In this document: positions 7,535 through 49,067 of the stretch, piece by piece
Layout: the number at the start of each line of letters is the position of its first letter
How positions within the stretch are numbered: the first letter of the stretch is position 1
Assembly: GCA_024653945.1 (NCBI GenBank)
Contig: JANLIT010000003.1
Location: forward strand, 98,936 to 162,935
Reading direction: 5' to 3'
From: Candidatus Campbellbacteria bacterium
Lineage (GTDB): Bacteria > Patescibacteriota > Minisyncoccia > Phycocordibacterales > EsbW-18
DNA length: 64,000 nt
Made by a program: the position numbers and the translations under genes
Notes under the pieces: model-generated
The model's database searches: none
Seen by the model: only the letters and a program-made list of their open reading frames with translations
What the model was told of the DNA's origin: nothing

Positions 7535-8425
7535 TTAGAGAGATTGCAACTCTGGAGTAACTTCTAACAGAGACGGAGCTTGTTCCTTGTGTTCTTTCTC
7601 TTTGTAAAAAACCTTGTTACCAAAACGAAGATCTATATATTCAACACCCATAATTCCACCTGCTTTTTTAAAATCATCTGATTCAATAATTGTTGTGAGA
7701 TTAGTGAGCACTTCGTCATATGAGTTACTTCTTTTTACCAACAATCGAAGGGTGTCTCGATGTGGCGTCGTAAGTGATACTTCAATATCGTTTCCTTCTA
7801 TACGAAGATGTGTAACACGCATAGATAGTTTTCCAAGAGCTGTAATGAGTGAGCGAAAGAGAGAAAATTCTTCAAGTGTAAGGGCATATGTTCCGAGTGG
7901 CACCGCCATCATGTTCAACTCGTAGGTAATATACGATGTGCCTGAAAAATGAGGGGCTGTGATAAACACAAACGCAGTGTCATCAATAAAATAACATTCT
8001 TCTGTTGTGGGTGTTGGTACATCACCCACTAATTGGCACACAACAGCAACTCCTTTCCGTTCTTCAAGGTGAATAGCGAGTTTGTGCCCATTCTCAACAC
8101 CAATAGACACCTTTTTTAGAATAGGAAACCTGGTAAGTATACTTTTTTGTATTTCTGCGCGTGGATACAAAAAAATATTTCGTTTTGAAAATATGTGTCC
8201 GTATGCGCCAGTCAAGGTATCACTCACCGCACCAAACACATCAGCACGTGCTACTGTTTTTGCTCCTTCAATGGATACATTGTTAATTTGGAGAAAGTTC
8301 GCGTATGACAGTTGCCAAAGAAATAAAAATAATGAAAACACCAGAAGTGTGTATATAACTGAAAACACAACAAAGCGTTTGCGCCGAAGCTTCCGAACAC
8401 GTTCTGATGTAAACCGCCGAAACAT
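7535..8425 (-). CDS. Cell division protein FtsQ/DivIB-like (POTRA domain)
   Basis: N-terminal transmembrane anchor; POTRA-like region (NVSIEGAKTVARADV); size and architecture. Confidence 0.55.
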   Translation of the reverse strand: MFRRFTSERVRKLRRKRFVVFSVIYTLLVFSLFLFLWQLSYANFLQINNVSIEGAKTVARADVFGAVSDTLTGAYGHIFSKRNIFLYPRAEIQKSILTRFPILKKVSIGVENGHKLAIHLEERKGVAVVCQLVGDVPTPTTEECYFIDDTAFVFITAPHFSGTSYITYELNMMAVPLGTYALTLEEFSLFRSLITALGKLSMRVTHLRIEGNDIEVSLTTPHRDTLRLLVKRSNSYDEVLTNLTTIIESDDFKKAGGIMGVEYIDLRFGNKVFYKEKEHKEQAPSLLEVTPELQSL

Positions 8426-8428
8426 ACA

Positions 8429-9700
8429 CTACGCTTTTGAGATTTTTTCCTTCCCGTTCATATACGGACGGAGTACTTCTGGAATAGTGATTGAACCGTC
8501 AGCGTTTTGGTAGTTTTCAACAAGAGGAACAAGAATGCGCGGAGTTGCAAGTGCGGTGTTATTGAGCGAGTGAGCATACTGCAATTTTCCATCAGCATCC
8601 CGATATTTGGTATTCAAACGACGTGTTTGAAAATCGTGGAAGTATGAAGATGAGTGTGTCTCACGATACTTCCCTTCACTTGGAACCCATGTTTCTATAT
8701 CATATTTTTTAACCTGCCCAAGACCGAGGTCACCACTGCAATTAATCACCACATGGTATGGCAATTGTAATGCCTGCAGGAGCTCTTCAGCGTTCGTGGT
8801 GAGTGCCTCGTGGTGTTTTACAGATTCCTCGTGACTTGCCTCGCACAACACCACCTGTTCAAATTTAAAGAACTCATGCACACGAACAATGCCGGTCGTA
8901 TCTTTTCCATAACTTCCCGCTTCTCGTCGAAAACACGGAGAAAAAGCAAAGAACTTAATTGGCAATTCTGATCGTTCAACAACTTCGTCCATGTAGTACG
9001 CCATTGTTGGAACTTCGGCTGTACCTGCCAAATACATTTCATCCTGTGCTTTGTATAAATCTTCTTCACTTTGAGGAAGATACCCCGTTCCTACAAATGG
9101 CTCACGCTTCACAAGAGATGGTGCGATGATTGGAGTAAACCCACCCTTATGCATGAAGTGGTTAAACACGAATTGCCAGAGTGCAAAAGATAATTCTGCT
9201 CCCGCATTTTTCAAAAAATATCCACGGAATCCCGCTGTTTTTGTTCCACGTTCAAAATCAACCATGTCCAGATTTTCCATGAGCTCAATGTGTCCTTTCG
9301 GTTCAAAATCGAATTTTGGTTTGTCACCCCACACACGAACCTCTTGGTTGTCAGCATCAGTATTCCCTTCTGGCACAGACATATCAGGAACATTGGGAAC
9401 TTGTAACATAAGAAGTCGCCACTGTTCAACAACAATTTTTATTTCTTCTTCTTTTTTTTGAAGTGTTTCTTTAAGAGGCTTCATTTGGGCAATGAGTTCT
9501 GCGCGCTCATCGACTGATGCGTTTGGCATTTTTTCACTCACTGCGTTTTGTTGCGCACGCATGTCATCAATCTCTTTGGTTAAGGCACGACGTGAATCAT
9601 CGAGAGCAAGAAGTACCTCAATATCCACCTTCACGTGCTTTTTTTGTGCCCCCGCAATAACGACGTCTTTGTTTTCCCTGATGAAGTTGATATCTAACAT
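8429..9700 (-). CDS. serS: Seryl-tRNA synthetase
   Basis: N-terminal coiled-coil arm; class II motifs (FRREAGS, GSALA-type). Confidence 0.9.
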   Translation of the reverse strand: MLDINFIRENKDVVIAGAQKKHVKVDIEVLLALDDSRRALTKEIDDMRAQQNAVSEKMPNASVDERAELIAQMKPLKETLQKKEEEIKIVVEQWRLLMLQVPNVPDMSVPEGNTDADNQEVRVWGDKPKFDFEPKGHIELMENLDMVDFERGTKTAGFRGYFLKNAGAELSFALWQFVFNHFMHKGGFTPIIAPSLVKREPFVGTGYLPQSEEDLYKAQDEMYLAGTAEVPTMAYYMDEVVERSELPIKFFAFSPCFRREAGSYGKDTTGIVRVHEFFKFEQVVLCEASHEESVKHHEALTTNAEELLQALQLPYHVVINCSGDLGLGQVKKYDIETWVPSEGKYRETHSSSYFHDFQTRRLNTKYRDADGKLQYAHSLNNTALATPRILVPLVENYQNADGSITIPEVLRPYMNGKEKISKA

Positions 9701-39366: not shown

Positions 39367-39771
39367 TTACGCTTCGGTTGTAGTACCGTCAAACTCTGGA
39401 CCATCAGCAACCGCCTCCGTTTTTGTAGCTCGCTCAATACCGTCTTTGTGATGAGTGGGTGCATAAATGGTATACAGCTTAAGAGTGTCTGTTGCAGATG
39501 TGTTGAATACATTGTGTTGTGCTCCTGCGGGAACAATAACCGCATCACCATCACTAACATTGTATTCTGTTTCATTAATCACCACCTTCCCTTCCCCTCT
39601 TTCAAATCGAAAAAACTGATCCCCGTCTTCGTGTACTTCCGAACCAATCTCTTCACCAGGAAGAAGCGACATGAGAACTAATTGGCAGTGTTGTGCGGTA
39701 TAGAGCACTTTTCTAAAAGAGTTATTTTCAACAGTGAGTTTTTCAATATTTTCCTTGTATCCTTTTTTCAT
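39367..39771 (-). CDS. Cupin-domain protein
   Basis: G.E.G.EVH.....F.....G.....N......GDAVIVPAG.QH. Confidence 0.75.
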   Translation of the reverse strand: MKKGYKENIEKLTVENNSFRKVLYTAQHCQLVLMSLLPGEEIGSEVHEDGDQFFRFERGEGKVVINETEYNVSDGDAVIVPAGAQHNVFNTSATDTLKLYTIYAPTHHKDGIERATKTEAVADGPEFDGTTTEA

Positions 39772-39804
39772 GGTTATATATTTAGATATGTAATAGTATC
39801 TTAA

Positions 39805-40560
39805 TTATACCCCCATTAAACGAATAACACCGTACATCACACCAATACCGAGGATGGTTGCAAATGTTGTCCATTTCACAGGATGTGCGTGGTGACTCTC
39901 GGGCAGTAAATCACTTGCACCGATGTACAAGAAAAATCCAGAGAAAAGAGCAAGAAGAAGTGCAAGTGTTGCATCCTGAACCGAAAAGAAGAGGGTTGAA
40001 AGAACACCGAGAACGGGCGCGCATGCATCAACGAGGAGCCATCGCAGTGCTTGTTTTCTATTTCCACCATTTTTGAGAATAAAACCAACGGTGTTGATAC
40101 CGTCTGAAAAATCATGCGTCAAAACCGCAACAGCAACAATCGCACCAACTGCAGGAGAAACTTGAAATGCTAAACCAATTCCAACACCATCAAGAAAACT
40201 GTGCAATGACAAACTTCCTGCACCAACCCTCCCCCTCCCTTCATGTGCACAATGCTCGTCGTGTCCGTGCATCAAAAATAATCTATCGAGCAACAAATAC
40301 AACACAAAACCAACCGCCATTATAGTGGTGATAAAAGATGCAGAGTATGTCATGCCACCCAATGAAATCGCTTCTGGAATTAAATCAAAAAACGCTACAC
40401 CAATAACCGCACCGGCACTAAATCCTAATATCAAATGAAGACGATCTTTGAGGTGTAGTGCAAACAATCCACCTAAAAGTGTTGCTAAAAATGTTGCAAT
40501 AGTAATTATGACAATAATCATGTACCAAAGTATATAACCTATAGGAAAGCAAGGGAACAC
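39805..40560 (-). CDS. ZIP-family metal transporter (ZupT-like)
   Basis: HSFLDGVGIG and LTHDFSDGINTV motifs; 8 transmembrane helices. Confidence 0.8.
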   Translation of the reverse strand: MFPCFPIGYILWYMIIVIITIATFLATLLGGLFALHLKDRLHLILGFSAGAVIGVAFFDLIPEAISLGGMTYSASFITTIMAVGFVLYLLLDRLFLMHGHDEHCAHEGRGRVGAGSLSLHSFLDGVGIGLAFQVSPAVGAIVAVAVLTHDFSDGINTVGFILKNGGNRKQALRWLLVDACAPVLGVLSTLFFSVQDATLALLLALFSGFFLYIGASDLLPESHHAHPVKWTTFATILGIGVMYGVIRLMGV

Positions 40561-40596
40561 TGGGATTCATGGAGTCTACTGAACTTTTCTGCTAGG

Positions 40597-41868
40597 ATGG
40601 CATTAATGGACGCAAAAACCCCATGGGATGTAATTGTAATCGGTGGAGGGCCCTCTGGCATGATGGCAGCGGGTACCGCAGCACAAAATAGTGCTAAGGT
40701 TCTTCTCATTGAAAAGAACGGTAAGCTTGGAGAAAAACTTCTCATTACGGGTGGTGGTCGGTGCAATGTCACCAACTCAGAATTTGATACTAGAAAATTT
40801 CTTGAAAAATTTAAAGAAAATGGCAAGTTTCTTTTTTCTGCGTTTGCACAGTGGGGCGTAAAGGAAACATTGGACTTTTTTCACACCCGAGGTATGCCGA
40901 CGAAGGTAGAAGCAGAATTGCGTACATTTCCTACATCAAATTCCGCACAGTCTGTGTGGGGTGTCCTCGTTAAAAATATACAAAAACACAACGTAGAAAT
41001 ACTCTCCAATTCGCCAGTCACCGATATTGTTCGTGAAGATGGAAATATTGTCGGTGTCCAATTACAAAGTAAAAAAATAGTCCGTGGAAAATCTATCATC
41101 ATTGCAACAGGAGGAACGTCTCGACCAGAAACAGGTTCTACGGGGGACGCATATGCGTGGCTTCAAAAAATTGGGCATACTGTGGTATTGCCTACTCCAT
41201 CGCTCGTCCCTGTGGCGCTTAAAGATGTATGGGTAAAAAAACTTGCTGGAATTACATTGTCTGATATCAAAATAACGGTGTTTCAAAATGAAAAAAAATA
41301 TTTTATAGCAAAAGGTAAAATTTTGTTTACCCATGTAGGTATCAGTGGACCAACGGTACTCAATATGAGTAAAGATATTGGTGAACTTTTGAAATATGGA
41401 GATGGTGAAGTTGTGTGTGCTCTAGATTTGCTCCCTACACACGATTACGGAAAACTAAATACTGCTCTCCAAGAACTCTTCAAAGAACACGATAAGAAAA
41501 AATTTCAAAATGCTCTTTCAAATCTCATCCCCAAAGCACTGGTTCCTATAATTATAGAACTCGGGGGTTTTAATGGAGAAACACACTGCAATAGCATCAC
41601 ACGAGAAGAGCGTCTTAAGCTTGTGAAGACACTTAAACACATTCCACTACACGTGAAGAAGTTACTAGGCACTGAAAAAGCAATTATCACGAGCGGAGGA
41701 GTTGTTCTGGATGAAATAGATTTCAAAACAATGCGCTCTCGTCTCTTTCCAAATCTTTATATTATCGGTGACATGTTGGATGTTGATAGACCTTCTGGTG
41801 GATACAGTTTACAGCTTTGTTGGACGACTGGGTTTGTTGCTGGACTGTCAGCATCAAAACAGGCATAA
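40597..41868 (+). CDS. HI0933-like/BaiN-like NAD(P)/FAD-dependent flavoprotein
   Basis: WDVIVIGGGPSGMMAAGTAA (GxGxxG) and family-wide conservation. Confidence 0.8.
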   Translation: MALMDAKTPWDVIVIGGGPSGMMAAGTAAQNSAKVLLIEKNGKLGEKLLITGGGRCNVTNSEFDTRKFLEKFKENGKFLFSAFAQWGVKETLDFFHTRGMPTKVEAELRTFPTSNSAQSVWGVLVKNIQKHNVEILSNSPVTDIVREDGNIVGVQLQSKKIVRGKSIIIATGGTSRPETGSTGDAYAWLQKIGHTVVLPTPSLVPVALKDVWVKKLAGITLSDIKITVFQNEKKYFIAKGKILFTHVGISGPTVLNMSKDIGELLKYGDGEVVCALDLLPTHDYGKLNTALQELFKEHDKKKFQNALSNLIPKALVPIIIELGGFNGETHCNSITREERLKLVKTLKHIPLHVKKLLGTEKAIITSGGVVLDEIDFKTMRSRLFPNLYIIGDMLDVDRPSGGYSLQLCWTTGFVAGLSASKQA

Positions 41869-44856: not shown

Positions 44857-45840
44857 TTACTCATTAGCCAGAATATACGCGCGGGTTTTTGGACCAAAAT
44901 ATCCTGTCGCAGGTGAAATGTTGTGTGCCACTTGGTACTCAATAAGGGAGCGTTGTGTGATAGGGCCAAAGTAGCCCGTTGCTCCCGCAGATGCCAATGC
45001 AACGGCGGATGGTCCGGTATTTTTTGCAATAAGAAATCCTTGAAGTGTAGCAACAGGAGGTCCTTGTGAATCAAGTGTGAGGTCTCCTACTGCCGTTGCT
45101 CCCACAGGAGTAGATGTCGGAATAGCCTTGAGTTCCTTTTCTATATCACTAGGAAGTTCAATACCTGCACCCTTTGCTTGCCACAGCTCACTTTGATAGT
45201 GTTCTACAACAAATGAAATAAATTCGTCTTCATCATCTACATCATTCAAAGCATCTGTAAGGAACTCTATTTTATCTTTGAGTGAAAACTCGCGAGTCAA
45301 GCGTGGAAATGGGTCAGTCGCCTCTCGACCGTCACGAATTTCAAGATGAAGGTGTGCTGCCCCACCAGATGCGTTACCGGTATTGCCAACAAGCCCAACG
45401 AGCTCACCTTCATCAAGCTCGTCGCCGTTTGAAACCGAAATTTCACTCAAGTGCATATACACGAATGTTTCGCCTCCCGGATTCGCGGTAGTGACATATT
45501 TACCTGAGCTTGAACCTGTACCAGTACGGGTAACAACGGCCTCCGTAGGAGATACAACAGGTGCTCCTTTTGGTGCCATAATATCCTCTCCTTCGTGCTC
45601 TCTCGTCCCCTCTCCACGCGGATCGCCGAAGTTGGGCCATAGCATGCCGGGTGTCACACCAAAAAGAACTGGAATAGGAAGATGCTCAACCGCATCGTCG
45701 TCCAATTTATTGATTTTGGTACGATAGGAACTTGACATGCGTCTACTATATTGAGCATCCACAGACAGCGGTATGCATACACTTAAAATAAAAATAAAGA
45801 AACCGAGGAAAAGAGCGATGCGAGGAGGTAATTTATTCAT
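44857..45840 (-). CDS. M23-family peptidase with C-terminal peptidoglycan-binding repeats
   Basis: GEDIMAPKGAPV...HLHLEI (HxH); two GYFGP...R peptidoglycan-binding repeats. Confidence 0.85.
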   Translation of the reverse strand: MNKLPPRIALFLGFFIFILSVCIPLSVDAQYSRRMSSSYRTKINKLDDDAVEHLPIPVLFGVTPGMLWPNFGDPRGEGTREHEGEDIMAPKGAPVVSPTEAVVTRTGTGSSSGKYVTTANPGGETFVYMHLSEISVSNGDELDEGELVGLVGNTGNASGGAAHLHLEIRDGREATDPFPRLTREFSLKDKIEFLTDALNDVDDEDEFISFVVEHYQSELWQAKGAGIELPSDIEKELKAIPTSTPVGATAVGDLTLDSQGPPVATLQGFLIAKNTGPSAVALASAGATGYFGPITQRSLIEYQVAHNISPATGYFGPKTRAYILANE

Positions 45841-45924: not shown

Positions 45925-46308
45925 TCATGGGGAAAGAAGAACTGTGGCGGGTGGTGGAAAACACTTTTTAGCCTCCCCCATCTGCTCATTTGACATCTGA
46001 AAATTGGCGGATGACACCTCGTTATCGACGGATGCCATCACCACCAACGGGATTGTGGCGGTCGCGTCGACCGTCAGCGTCACGTGCGAGAGCGCAACAA
46101 CCTTCAGAAAGACACGTCCGCCTGCAGAATACCGAAACATGACACTTGGCCCTTGCGGAGTACTCCTTGTAAAGACGAAGAAGTCTCCACAGCGAACTTC
46201 TCCGGTCGATGTCACAACGTCTGCAACCGACACCAGTGGGTACTTTGGCTGTGCTTGTGCTGCACCGGTAATGCATAGCGCAACGAGAAACATCCCTAGC
46301 TTTTTCAT
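45925..46308 (-). CDS. Secreted hypothetical protein (signal peptide), GC-rich gene
   Basis: MKKLGMFLVALCITGAAQA signal; very GC-rich relative to neighbours; own terminator. Confidence 0.5.
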   Translation of the reverse strand: MKKLGMFLVALCITGAAQAQPKYPLVSVADVVTSTGEVRCGDFFVFTRSTPQGPSVMFRYSAGGRVFLKVVALSHVTLTVDATATIPLVVMASVDNEVSSANFQMSNEQMGEAKKCFPPPATVLLSP

Positions 46309-46383: not shown

Positions 46384-47244
46384 TTAAGGTGTTCCTGTAG
46401 TTGAAGAAGTGCTACTTGTCGCATCTGCTGGTGGCACTCCAGTAGACGAGGTTGTGGTAGAAGAAGTGGTAACTACGGTAGTGGTCGCACTTCCCGCAGA
46501 AGATGTTGCTACTACTGCCGACGTGGAGGCGACGGGTGTCGTCCCCACCACCGTTGATACTGTTCCCATTCCCCGGGGTGTTCCTGTTGTTACGGTTACC
46601 TCTGTCGTTGTTGTTACTTCTGTTGTTGATGTCGCCGTTGGTTCAATAAGACTCGGTATTCCATTCTGACATACATACGAACCATACCCCGCTCCCGCTA
46701 CACCACCGATAAGAAGTGCTGCAAAAAGCAGGAGTATGTTTTGAATGGATGGGCTCAAAACACCGCTTGTTGTTTTTGAAGATAGTTCCTTTTTTTGTGA
46801 TTCAGATGTATTTTTTTCATCCTCTGCGTCTTTGTCTCCATCATCCGTGTTTATCTCCGGCAACTTTAAAAAGTTAAGCGATGCGGAATTGATAACATAC
46901 CGCATTTCTTTTGTATCGTCATGTATTTTTTCTATTGTGTATCCCAAATGACCACTACACTCTTTGCATGTTACTTCGCTCTTTCCGGCCGTTGTGCCAT
47001 CAGGGATGAGAACTACGTCTTTTATGTTGATTGGACCAGTAAATGTCGGCCATCCATTTTCTGCCTCACATTTTGAAAGCGATGCAAATAAAGCAGTGCC
47101 ACAGAAGGCACATGTGTAGACACCGTGCTCATCATGGTCCCAAAATTTGCCAGAAAAAGGACGCTCGGTGTCCTTCTGTCGCATGACGCGATACTGCTCT
47201 GGATTTAATTTCTTTTTGAAAGCTTCTTCGTCCATATCCACCAT
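46384..47244 (-). CDS. MsrB (SelR)-domain protein with catalytic Cys replaced by Val, fused to a transmembrane segment and Thr/Ser/Val-rich tail
   Basis: RPFSG...CAFCG...GWP(T)F...EVTCKECSGHLGY keeps both Zn CxxC pairs, but the catalytic motif reads RYVINSASL instead of RYCxNSA; followed by acidic linker, transmembrane helix ILLLFAALLIGGVAGAGYG and a ~90-aa T/S/V-rich region. Confidence 0.7.
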   Translation of the reverse strand: MVDMDEEAFKKKLNPEQYRVMRQKDTERPFSGKFWDHDEHGVYTCAFCGTALFASLSKCEAENGWPTFTGPINIKDVVLIPDGTTAGKSEVTCKECSGHLGYTIEKIHDDTKEMRYVINSASLNFLKLPEINTDDGDKDAEDEKNTSESQKKELSSKTTSGVLSPSIQNILLLFAALLIGGVAGAGYGSYVCQNGIPSLIEPTATSTTEVTTTTEVTVTTGTPRGMGTVSTVVGTTPVASTSAVVATSSAGSATTTVVTTSSTTTSSTGVPPADATSSTSSTTGTP

Positions 47245-47254
47245 ATCACTCACA

Positions 47255-48145
47255 CTATTGTACCGCGGGGTACAAAGTAAATAGTGCCTTAATGCCCGCA
47301 AGGTTTCGTTCCCACTCGATTGTCTCGTGTGTTTGAAGTTCCACAGTAACAGCAGGAATGTTGATAGATGCAAGCCATCCTTCGGCGTCACCAGTAATCG
47401 GATATGCGTCAAATATTGTAACAGCGGGATATCCTGAAGCACCAGCATAGGCATTCATCACAGAAAGTGTCTCGGGAAGAATCCCCTTCTCACACTCTGA
47501 TGCATAGACCGCATTTGACTGACTGTGCCAAAAAACAACTGCAGACGGTGTATCTTTCAAGATAAAATCACGGAGAGCGGTGGTTTCTGGTTCAGAAAAT
47601 GCTGATGTTCCTGCAGAAACTATTTGTGAACGCCACGTACTTTCGCTCTTCCATTTACAATCAAAATTACGATTCAAATCAACACCGTGCGCATTGAATC
47701 GCCCCGATGCGGCAACCTCTTGAGACGAGGAAACATCTGCACTGGTAAAACGTCCATCTTTACCAACTACCTTAAAGACACCGTCGGGATTGGCGGATGG
47801 AATAACGGTAATGGTTAGGTTGGTAGGAATAATTGTGGGGTTTGCCGTGAGAAAATCCATGAATTGATATGCAAGAAGTACACTATTCCATTCATATCCG
47901 CCATGTATTCCGCCCACAAATAATAGGTGTATCGCTCCTGTCCCGTATGTGTACGCATCAATAGTACGGCCTTGCACAGACGTACCAATCACCTCATGTG
48001 TACCTACATTCTCTGTCTTCTCATCTGGTATTGGTAGTGGTTCGAGTGTCTTTCCACGCAGACTGAAAAAGACAAATACACCTATACCAAGTACAGCGAG
48101 AATACCAATAACTGTGACGATTCGCCTCAAAGAGAAAGATCGCAT
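47255..48145 (-). CDS. M14-family zinc carboxypeptidase-like protein (paralog 1), membrane-anchored
   Basis: VDLNRNF, FSEPET, HS..N M14 signatures; N-terminal transmembrane segment. Confidence 0.7.
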   Translation of the reverse strand: MRSFSLRRIVTVIGILAVLGIGVFVFFSLRGKTLEPLPIPDEKTENVGTHEVIGTSVQGRTIDAYTYGTGAIHLLFVGGIHGGYEWNSVLLAYQFMDFLTANPTIIPTNLTITVIPSANPDGVFKVVGKDGRFTSADVSSSQEVAASGRFNAHGVDLNRNFDCKWKSESTWRSQIVSAGTSAFSEPETTALRDFILKDTPSAVVFWHSQSNAVYASECEKGILPETLSVMNAYAGASGYPAVTIFDAYPITGDAEGWLASINIPAVTVELQTHETIEWERNLAGIKALFTLYPAVQ

Positions 48146-48164: not shown

Positions 48165-49067
48165 TTATTTAGTGTAGGCCTTAAAGAGTGCCTCGATACC
48201 AGCCTTGTTTTTTGCCCACTCAGTGTCGGTGTGGTTAGTGAGAAGAACGCTGATTGCAGGAATGTTGTTCTTGGCCAACCAATTCACCATGTCACCTGTT
48301 GTCTCGTAGAAATCAAAGCTTTCGTATGCAGGATATCCAGAAGCTTTTGCATATGCGTTTGTCACCGCGAGTGTCTCTGGAGGAACGGGGCCATTACAAC
48401 TTGATGCATAGACACCACCAGCGGCGCTGTACCACACAACAACTGCAGTAGGATCAAGTGCGTTTACATAATCACGGACAGCTTTACTTTCTGGTTCAGA
48501 AAATACGCTCGTTCCACCGGAAACCGATTTGTTCTGCCATGTACCTGTTGCTTGCCAGTCACAATCAAAGTTTCGATTGAGGTCAACATTGTTTGCATTG
48601 AAACGACCAGACACAGCAACTGCTTGTGATGGTGAAACATCTGCTGATGTAAAACGTCCATCAGTACCCACAACTTTAGTAAGACCGTCTGGGTTCACTA
48701 CTGGAATAACACTAACCTGTATGTTTGCGGGGATAGCAGAAGGATTTGCTTTCAAATAGTCCATCAATTCATATGCAACCTGAACCGTGTTCCATTCATA
48801 TCCGCCGTGTATACCTCCAACAAAGAGAAGTTTTGTACTACCTTTGCCGTAGTTGTAGGCAAGAATGTCGCGCCCTTGCACAGACGTACCAATAACAACT
48901 TGGGCCTTATCACCCTGGTCTTCACCAGGAGGTACAACCACCGTGGTTGTAGTCGTAGTTGTTGTTGCAACTGGATTAGGCACATCTACTGTCTTTTGTT
49001 TCATCAAAAAATAACCACCAACAATAATGAGAATAATGACGACGAGTGCAATGATTGTTTTTTTCAT
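48165..49067 (-). CDS. M14-family zinc carboxypeptidase-like protein (paralog 2), membrane-anchored
   Basis: Same motifs (VDLNRNF, FSEPES); ~55% identity to the neighbouring paralog by eye; Thr-rich linker. Confidence 0.7.
   Translation of the reverse strand: MKKTIIALVVIILIIVGGYFLMKQKTVDVPNPVATTTTTTTTVVVPPGEDQGDKAQVVIGTSVQGRDILAYNYGKGSTKLLFVGGIHGGYEWNTVQVAYELMDYLKANPSAIPANIQVSVIPVVNPDGLTKVVGTDGRFTSADVSPSQAVAVSGRFNANNVDLNRNFDCDWQATGTWQNKSVSGGTSVFSEPESKAVRDYVNALDPTAVVVWYSAAGGVYASSCNGPVPPETLAVTNAYAKASGYPAYESFDFYETTGDMVNWLAKNNIPAISVLLTNHTDTEWAKNKAGIEALFKAYTK

Follow-up and report, generated by a model that had tools for sequence, protein, structure and literature searches.

A membrane-tethered MsrB-like protein of Candidatus Campbellbacteria that lacks the catalytic cysteine, and the Patescibacterial family of probable pseudoenzymes around it

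A 64,000-nucleotide stretch of a Candidatus Campbellbacteria genome (contig JANLIT010000003.1, positions 98,936 to 162,935; hereafter the window) carries a gene for a 283-residue protein in which a domain with the fold of the methionine-R-sulfoxide reductase MsrB is followed by an acidic linker, a single transmembrane (TM) helix and a Thr/Ser-rich tail. A first-pass annotation, made from the letters alone, had described it as a membrane-tethered, probably redox-inactive MsrB-like module with an outside tail. Our analysis supports this description and extends it from one protein to a family, the inactivity being inferred from sequence. It is highly probable that the window protein is not a thiol-based methionine sulfoxide (MetSO) reductase, and we are nearly as confident that it belongs to a Patescibacteria-restricted pseudo-MsrB family, maintained by selection, which combines a cytoplasmic domain with an external tail. 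The role that we favour, with moderate confidence, is that of a non-catalytic, membrane-tethered binding or scaffold pseudoenzyme.

In MsrB, Cys117 is the nucleophile and His103 (N. meningitidis numbering) is the acid catalyst (PMC6210582). The window protein has neither. HMMER alignments to the solved MsrBs 3cez, 6q9v and 6qa0 pair its 'mRYvINSAsLnF' with 'lRYcINSAaLnF', which places Val114 at the catalytic Cys position, as had been proposed from the motif (residue numbers of the window protein are those of the 283-residue product, coordinates are those of the whole window, and the features are collected in Table 1). The acid-catalyst position is taken by Tyr99, which turns HLGH into HLGY. 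The fold signatures had been considered intact; this is true of RPFSG, GWPTF, both CxxC pairs and the first His of HLG, but not of the acid-catalyst His. The resolving-Cys position of SGCGWP is occupied by Asn60, and the DGP loop of MsrB is exchanged for a longer loop, EKIHDDTKE. Arg112 (of RYV) is kept, and an Asp of the remodelled HDDTKE loop aligns to Asp107 in an uncertain part of the alignment. Arg116 and Asp107 we take to be the Cys-activating residues, following the literature on the N. meningitidis enzyme. A resolving Cys for recycling by thioredoxin is not universal among MsrBs, while a Zn(Cys)4 site marks the zinc-containing subclass.

A sequencing error at the Val codon can be excluded, because GTT is two substitutions away from the Cys codons TGT and TGC and recurs in P0002 and P0003, homologs that come from other samples. 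The earlier statement that a single-base error cannot explain the Val is therefore correct. No alternative resolving Cys was found either. The sole extra Cys of the domain, C56 (in SKCEAENGWP), lies off the resolving-Cys position, is unique to the window protein and is replaced by Phe in all close homologs, and C189 is situated beyond the membrane; both were rejected as alternative catalytic residues.

The only Pfam match in the 283-residue protein is SelR (PF01641, E 9.9e-34, 116 bits against a cutoff of 24.9). On the NCBI MsrB equivalog model TIGR00357 the protein scores 107.6 bits, under the curated cutoff of 113.05, compared to 183.3 bits for the canonical Patescibacterial MsrB P0141 and 174.2 bits for P0136, a Patescibacterial protein considered below. 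An AlphaFold2 (AF2) model based on a 92-sequence alignment has a predicted local distance difference test score (pLDDT) above 90 across residues 1-130, with the linker and the tail disordered. When this model was compared to PDB structures with Foldseek, the top 30 matches were all MsrB, the best being 3cxk (TM-score 0.88, root-mean-square deviation 2.5 Å); CULT, Yippee, Mis18 and RIG-I-like proteins were far weaker matches (E about 1e-4). Canonical zinc MsrB/SelR enzymes (PF01641, TIGR00357; PilB-MsrB of N. meningitidis, the E. coli enzyme, 3cez/3cxk of B. pseudomallei) are 35-48% identical to the window protein and share with it, apart from the fold, both CxxC pairs, the GWP(S/T)F loop, the first His of HLG and the xNSxxLxF strand. 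They differ in possessing the catalytic Cys, the acid-catalyst His, the resolving Cys and the DGP loop, and the soluble canonical enzymes lack the C-terminal linker, helix and tail. Descended from a Patescibacterial MsrB, the domain is a recent offshoot of MsrB proper.

The reading frame is unbroken up to the stop codon at 46384-46386. The start of the gene had been put at 47244, where a genuine ATG is indeed present (MVDMDEE...), but every homolog starts at the second ATG, 47235 (MDEEAFKKKLNPEQY...), as does the NCBI record P0001 on a 228-kb contig of a Candidatus Campbellbacteria metagenome-assembled genome (MAG), which is 100% identical to the 283-residue protein. A mechanically listed open reading frame (ORF) of 356 residues runs into the upstream gene and is not supported. 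Scanning for promoters and terminators was uninformative: fewer were found than expected from shuffled sequence (3 against 6.6 and 1 against 3.3).

A first homology search yielded nine further proteins of 229-287 residues with the same layout. When 5.8 billion proteins had been searched with a profile and 1.84 billion cluster representatives scanned exhaustively with HMMER, the family comprised about 60 sequence clusters of 212-299 residues that share the architecture of the window protein: an MsrB-like domain, an acidic linker, a Gly-rich TM helix, a juxtamembrane Cys and a T/S/P/A-rich tail. Where a source is named, it is Candidatus Campbellbacteria, Candidatus Paceibacterota, 'Patescibacteria group' or, in one case, a Saccharibacteria MAG (locus L008). 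The family is rare, as each cluster holds one or two members and a scan of 185,579 species-representative genomes gave 80 loci, 79 with canonical MsrB and L008 as the sole family member; it is therefore almost absent from GTDB species representatives. In the L008 protein (8001-8780 of the locus, from CAZHOB010000032.1) the Cys is replaced by Arg (CGT) and HLGH by HLGW, and the linker contains a poly-Pro run; this protein takes the family beyond Paceibacteria-type lineages. No description of a catalytically dead, membrane-anchored MsrB branch was found in the searchable literature. The pseudo-MsrB family is thus previously undescribed, and it is found in Patescibacteria (the Candidate Phyla Radiation, CPR) only.

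Residue conservation was compared between 60 family members and 275 canonical MsrBs from the same searches, with E. coli MsrB as the reference for the columns. The four Zn cysteines occur in 60/60 family members and, at each position, in at least 274 of the 275 canonical enzymes. The catalytic Cys is retained by just two family members, P0004 and P0249, against 271/275 canonical MsrBs; it is replaced by Arg (37), Gln (12), Val (4), Ser (2), Glu (2) or Thr (1). Conservation of the Val in orthologs, a point raised by the first-pass annotation, accordingly extends to P0002 and P0003 with their identical codon but not to the family, where Arg and Gln prevail. His103 is found in 3/60 members (Tyr in 34) against 273/275, Arg116 in 3/60 against 269/275 and Asp107 in 12/60 against 269/275, while the resolving-Cys column contains no Cys in any of the 60. 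Trp65 (45/60 against 275/275), His100 (48/60 against 275/275) and Asn119 (55/60 against 274/275) are lost less often. A further comparison, made column by column, registered the loss of the Arg of RTEV, the Phe of HVF, the DGP loop, the Phe of TExPF and the Ser of GWPSF. MetSO is bound by W73, R97, H111 and F113 in X. campestris numbering (PMC4287342); the equivalents of two of these four residues, R97 and F113, are not conserved in the family and H111 is replaced. Neither the length nor the sequence of the DGP loop, a wall of the cradle, is constant. With the catalytic Cys, His103 and other residues lost and the cradle residues half kept, the chemistry appears to be gone and the substrate cradle to be partly preserved. 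Since the nucleophile and the acid catalyst are missing and the Cys-activating residues and part of the cradle are not conserved across the family, thiol-based reduction of methionine-R-sulfoxide is not to be expected.

The protein could still act as a reductase if another nucleophile took over, whether C56, a thiol of a partner protein or a low-molecular-weight thiol. C56 does belong to the loop before GWPTF, near the resolving-Cys sites of other MsrBs; P0004 and P0249 keep the catalytic Cys, and P0136 has a canonical site within the same architecture. However, C56 is a peculiarity of the window protein, His103, Arg116 and Asp107 have been lost family-wide, the ORF contains no in-frame TGA able to encode selenocysteine, and P0136 falls outside the family clade in 99/100 bootstraps. 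We consider an active reductase very improbable. P0136 resembles the window protein in having an acidic linker, a TM helix and an S/T/P tail which ends in GTTP, and differs from it by its canonical active site (HLGH...RYCINS) and its position outside the pseudo-MsrB clade. It is very rare, being known from one 4-kb Logan contig and one fragment (P0138); a search for more active membrane-tethered MsrBs seeded with P0136 returned P0138 alone, as another protein, P0363, is a tandem MsrB without a tether. P0136 may have preserved the ancestral state, or it may have arisen by recombination or by a convergent fusion.

Neighbour joining of 338 domains places all 59 family members scored in one clade, which also holds P0127 and a fragment. 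After removal of 13 active-site columns the clade still holds 58/59 members. Ratios of nonsynonymous to synonymous substitution rates (dN/dS, Nei-Gojobori) were estimated for two independent close pairs. For P0002/P0003 the values are 0.108 in the domain, 0.22 in the TM helix and tail and 0.125 in the linker; for P0006/P0008 they are 0.021, 0.16 and 0.316, respectively. Purifying selection is thus strongest on the pseudo-enzyme domain, and values so far below 1 (0.021-0.108) indicate that the dead domain is maintained by it. The same data bear on the suspicion that the gene results from faulty sequencing or assembly, or from a chimeric ORF, or is a neutrally drifting remnant. The source is a MAG, and a low-complexity tail is prone to assembly problems; but about 60 clusters, obtained from independent samples with independent assemblers, show the same architecture, the GTT is common to P0002 and P0003, the frame is intact to the stop, and dN/dS is well below 1 in both domain and tail. 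An artefact or a decaying gene is therefore extremely unlikely.

The translated 283-residue protein has no N-terminal hydrophobic segment or signal sequence, in agreement with the earlier observation. Likewise, the acidic linker, the single TM helix and the GC-rich, T/S/V-rich tail of about 90 residues which it had listed are all confirmed by charge, hydropathy and composition: the 93-residue tail contains T32/S16/V12 and its DNA is 52% GC against 42% in the window. The hydrophobic stretch covers about residues 164-188, and AF2 models a helix at residues 162-176. Across the family the linkers have a mean length of about 30 residues and are composed of E (19.5%), D (11%) and K (11%) to a large extent; the tails, with a mean of about 80 residues, consist mostly of T, P, A and S, and many end in GTI, GTP or TTP. 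Summed over the family, the 20 residues that precede the helix contain 185 Lys and Arg, compared to 27 in the 25 residues that follow it. By the positive-inside rule this corresponds to an N-in/C-out topology, with the MsrB-like domain predicted to be cytoplasmic and the tail extracytoplasmic.

This topology sets the window protein apart from Neisseria PilB, S. pneumoniae MsrAB2 and MsrPQ, envelope-associated active Msr enzymes which work outside the cytoplasm and are fed by dedicated electron-transfer partners. For the window protein, the prediction is an inactive domain inside the cytoplasm, with the disordered tail alone outside. The tail could be assigned neither to a known domain, as it has no Pfam match even at E 10, nor to a portable module, as about 200 kb of CPR sequence yielded no second ORF with a TM-Cys-S/T tail. 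A lipobox at the post-TM Cys was rejected, because the preceding residue is bulky and hydrophobic (V/L/I/M/F) rather than G/A/S. One subclade (P0009, P0010, P0123, P0134, P0237, P0242, P0248, P0253) has a C-x3-C pair at the outer end of the helix, e.g., YCKMTCG or VCQSMCH; the remaining members have one conserved Cys there. A loose motif, [D/G]-G-T-[I/P] or TTP (46387-46398 in the window), is kept at the very C-terminus in spite of the low complexity of the tail; in a 10-member alignment its Gly is invariant and its Thr 90% conserved. This motif might be a recognition or processing signal.

Single-pass anti-sigma factors have a cytoplasmic Zn domain, one TM helix and an unstructured outside segment. 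By analogy, the Zn(Cys)4 domain of the window protein could sequester a regulator at the membrane, and the domain would be released by proteolysis of the tail followed by intramembrane cleavage of the Gly-rich helix, or else by oxidation of the Zn-thiolate, the outer Cys or the C-x3-C pair. The architecture, including a helix-destabilised single TM segment, is similar, the Zn cysteines are invariant, the outside Cys (54/60) or C-x3-C is conserved, and in this genome the gene follows two exported carboxypeptidase genes with 19-nt gaps. On the other hand, the Zn site is no more than the one that serves a structural role in MsrB. The zf-HC2/ZAS family gives no Pfam match, H37-x4-C42-x2-C45 is found instead of H-x3-C-x2-C, and H37 is conserved in only 13%. 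No gene for a sigma factor or another regulator is a constant neighbour in the window and seven homolog loci, and the neighbouring M14 genes are unique to the window. A tether of the anti-sigma type is therefore improbable.

The non-catalytic binding or scaffold role that we favour has precedents within the fold. The beta-tent cradle is a generic binding site with the catalytic residues on strand beta-7 (PMC4287342), and among the beta-tent relatives of MsrB this cradle serves binding without catalysis (Lupas et al. 2015, PMC4287342). CULT (cereblon), Yippee/Mis18, Mss4 and the RIG-I C-terminal domain share the fold class and the apical Zn(Cys)4 with the window protein (PMC4287342), but they are distant in sequence (12-20% identity) and none is a bacterial single-pass membrane protein. 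Membership in the CULT/cereblon type was rejected: the fold match is weak (E about 1e-4, 12-15% identity), the three-Trp cage is absent, the cradle having one Trp plus Tyr/His, and the window protein has no CULT or Yippee Pfam match. Both sequence and fold searches also found a 'SelR domain protein' of the Tetrahymena mitoribosome (6z1p, chain BL); its presence in a large complex points to a role in structure and not in catalysis. This protein, unlike ours, is eukaryotic, organellar and not membrane-anchored, and the alignment to it is partial (residues 12-70).

In the arrangement that we propose, a zinc-stabilised MsrB-fold domain would be held in the cytoplasm on an acidic leash of ~35 residues, and the Gly-rich helix would cross the membrane, leaving the Cys and a disordered Thr/Ser-rich tail of ~90 residues outside. 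The domain would serve as a binding or scaffold module at the inner face of the membrane, using its beta-tent as CULT, Yippee and Mss4 do. The Gly-zipper helix and the outside Cys may mediate self-association, and the tail is probably a wall-spanning, likely glycosylated spacer.

The first-pass annotation had suggested a MetSO-binding or scaffold protein. Its scaffold half is part of the role favoured here. The other half corresponds to a 'reader' or substrate trap which would bind methionine-R-sulfoxide, either within proteins or as the free amino acid, without reducing it, and would sense or sequester oxidised proteins close to the membrane. The methyl-pocket Trp, His100 and Asn119 are indeed mostly kept, a Tyr at His103 could still hydrogen-bond the sulfoxide oxygen, and the Val subclade, including the window protein, keeps Arg112 and an unobstructed site. 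However, in 82% of the family an Arg or Gln at the Cys position would project into the sulfoxide site, and binding is further weakened by the unconserved Arg of RTEV and Phe of HVF, the changes at the R97, F113 and H111 contacts and the variable cradle wall. We regard recognition of MetSO as possible but not probable.

Several observations weigh against a non-catalytic binding or scaffold pseudoenzyme as we have drawn it. Trp62, His96 and Asn116 of the sulfoxide pocket are 75-92% conserved, so some MetSO-like binding is possible. The residue at the Cys position varies (R/Q/V/S/E/T), which argues against one precisely conserved new ligand site. Arg at this position is encoded by CGC, CGT or CGA and Gln by CAA, one step from CGA; as CGY is one transition from TGY, the predominance of Arg and Gln may be partly mutational. 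The monophyly of the family is only moderately supported by bootstrapping (mean best-split F 0.86). Finally, no adjacent or consistent neighbour is conserved across the homolog loci, which leaves no clue to a partner.

A more far-reaching version of the binding role is that the family is turning an enzyme into a 'reader', the re-lined cradle (Tyr/Arg/Trp/His/Asn) recognising a specific ligand or modified side chain and maybe being coupled through the outside Cys or C-x3-C and the tail as a one-pass device for oxidative or envelope-stress signalling. We offer this as speculation and consider it rather unlikely. If true, such a family would be a bacterial counterpart of the transition from MsrB to CULT/Yippee.

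Family records MDO8558125.1, HZS42786.1 and MEK7640654.1, which lack the catalytic Cys, are labelled 'peptide-methionine (R)-S-oxide reductase MsrB'. The label is probably a systematic over-annotation of family members, and metabolic reconstructions that credit CPR carriers with MetSO repair on account of a pseudo-msrB are probably wrong. MsrB is among the most universal repair enzymes. A pseudoenzyme family of ~60 clusters under strong purifying selection suggests a role worth keeping even in very small genomes, and it offers a young, sequence-traceable example of the beta-tent fold moving from catalysis to non-catalytic use.

Table 1. Features of the MsrB-like gene and its neighbours in the window (CDS, coding sequence; aa, amino acids)
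Feature	Position	Strand	Basis and remarks
Second M14 paralog, N-terminal anchor, poly-Thr linker (ATTTTTTTTVVVPPG)	48165..49067	minus	Pfam PF00246, E 1.3e-19; translation
M14 peptidase, N-terminal membrane anchor	47255..48145	minus	Pfam PF00246, E 2.6e-23
MsrB-like membrane protein, CDS	46384..47235	minus	283 aa + stop; ORF and translation
SelR/MsrB-fold (beta-tent) domain, aa 1-125, predicted cytoplasmic	46861..47235	minus	Pfam, AF2, Foldseek
First Zn-binding CxxC, C42-A-F-C45	47101..47112	minus	aligned to MsrB Zn cysteines; 60/60 family
GWPTF loop, aa 61-65	47041..47055	minus	substrate-pocket Trp kept (45/60 family); Asn60 at resolving-Cys site, two residues before Trp
Second Zn-binding CxxC, C90-K-E-C93	46957..46968	minus	aligned to MsrB Zn cysteines; 60/60 family
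HLGY, aa 96-99	46939..46950	minus	first His kept; acid-catalyst His (His103, N. meningitidis numbering) replaced by Tyr99
RYVINS, aa 112-117, Val114 at catalytic Cys position	46885..46902	minus	alignment; Val114 codon GTT at 46894-46896
Acidic disordered linker, aa ~126-166	46738..46860	minus	net charge -5 (aa 125-160); pLDDT <50 at aa 146-159
Gly-rich TM helix, aa 167-188, ILLLFAALLIGGVAGAGYGSYV	46672..46737	minus	Kyte-Doolittle 19-mer mean 2.05
Juxtamembrane Cys189, outer helix end	46669..46671	minus	invariant in 10-member alignment; 54/60 family
Thr/Ser/Val-rich disordered tail, aa 190-283, predicted extracytoplasmic	46387..46668	minus	ends ...TTGTP; pLDDT about 50
127-aa ORF, signal-peptide-like N-terminus (MKKLGMFLVALCITGAAQAQP...)	45925-46308	minus	75 nt downstream of MsrB-like gene; no Pfam match
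M23 peptidase + C-terminal PG_binding_1	44857-45840	minus	Pfam

The MsrB-like gene is the third in a co-directional row, preceded by the two M14 peptidase genes with a 19-nt gap after each. The first-pass annotation was right about two tandem membrane-anchored M14 paralogs adjoining the gene, though not about its position, which is downstream of the pair rather than upstream. The three genes are likely co-transcribed in this genome. No M14 gene was found near the homologs at seven independent loci. A functional link to the M14 peptidases was therefore rejected, adjacency being 0/7 and the pair lying outside any conserved unit. The small ORFs flanking the homologs at these loci show no relation to one another, and those downstream of the homologs are unrelated to the 127-residue ORF of the window. 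Together with the M23 gene, the two M14 genes form a local cell-wall peptidase cluster. Beyond M23, downstream, genes for a HAD hydrolase and an ABC-F protein are located, and VTT/DedA, DUF218, DoxX and MFS genes lie upstream of the M14 pair.

The 64-kb window and 135 kb of homolog loci were searched by tblastn, and neither a canonical msrA nor a canonical msrB was detected. Some gene types recur loosely within a few kb of the family genes, namely Pirin, TspO, PhnB-like 3-dmu-9_3-mt/glyoxalase, cupin, MFS, CSD and HI0933-like flavoprotein. Redox- or stress-associated recurrences were registered, in different lineages, at L001/L092, L002, L004/L005, L006/L007, L089 and L090, and at 39367-41868 in the window; none is regular or close enough to suggest an operon. 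The pseudo-msrB has a small free-standing GIY-YIG gene as its direct neighbour in L006 (7807-8100) and another one close by in L002 (4115-4366). A GIY-YIG nuclease is also found inside the SelR domain, just past the GWPSF loop, in canonical MsrBs of ~220 residues (P0373, P0372, P0375, P0381, P0383, P0386, P0395, P0396).

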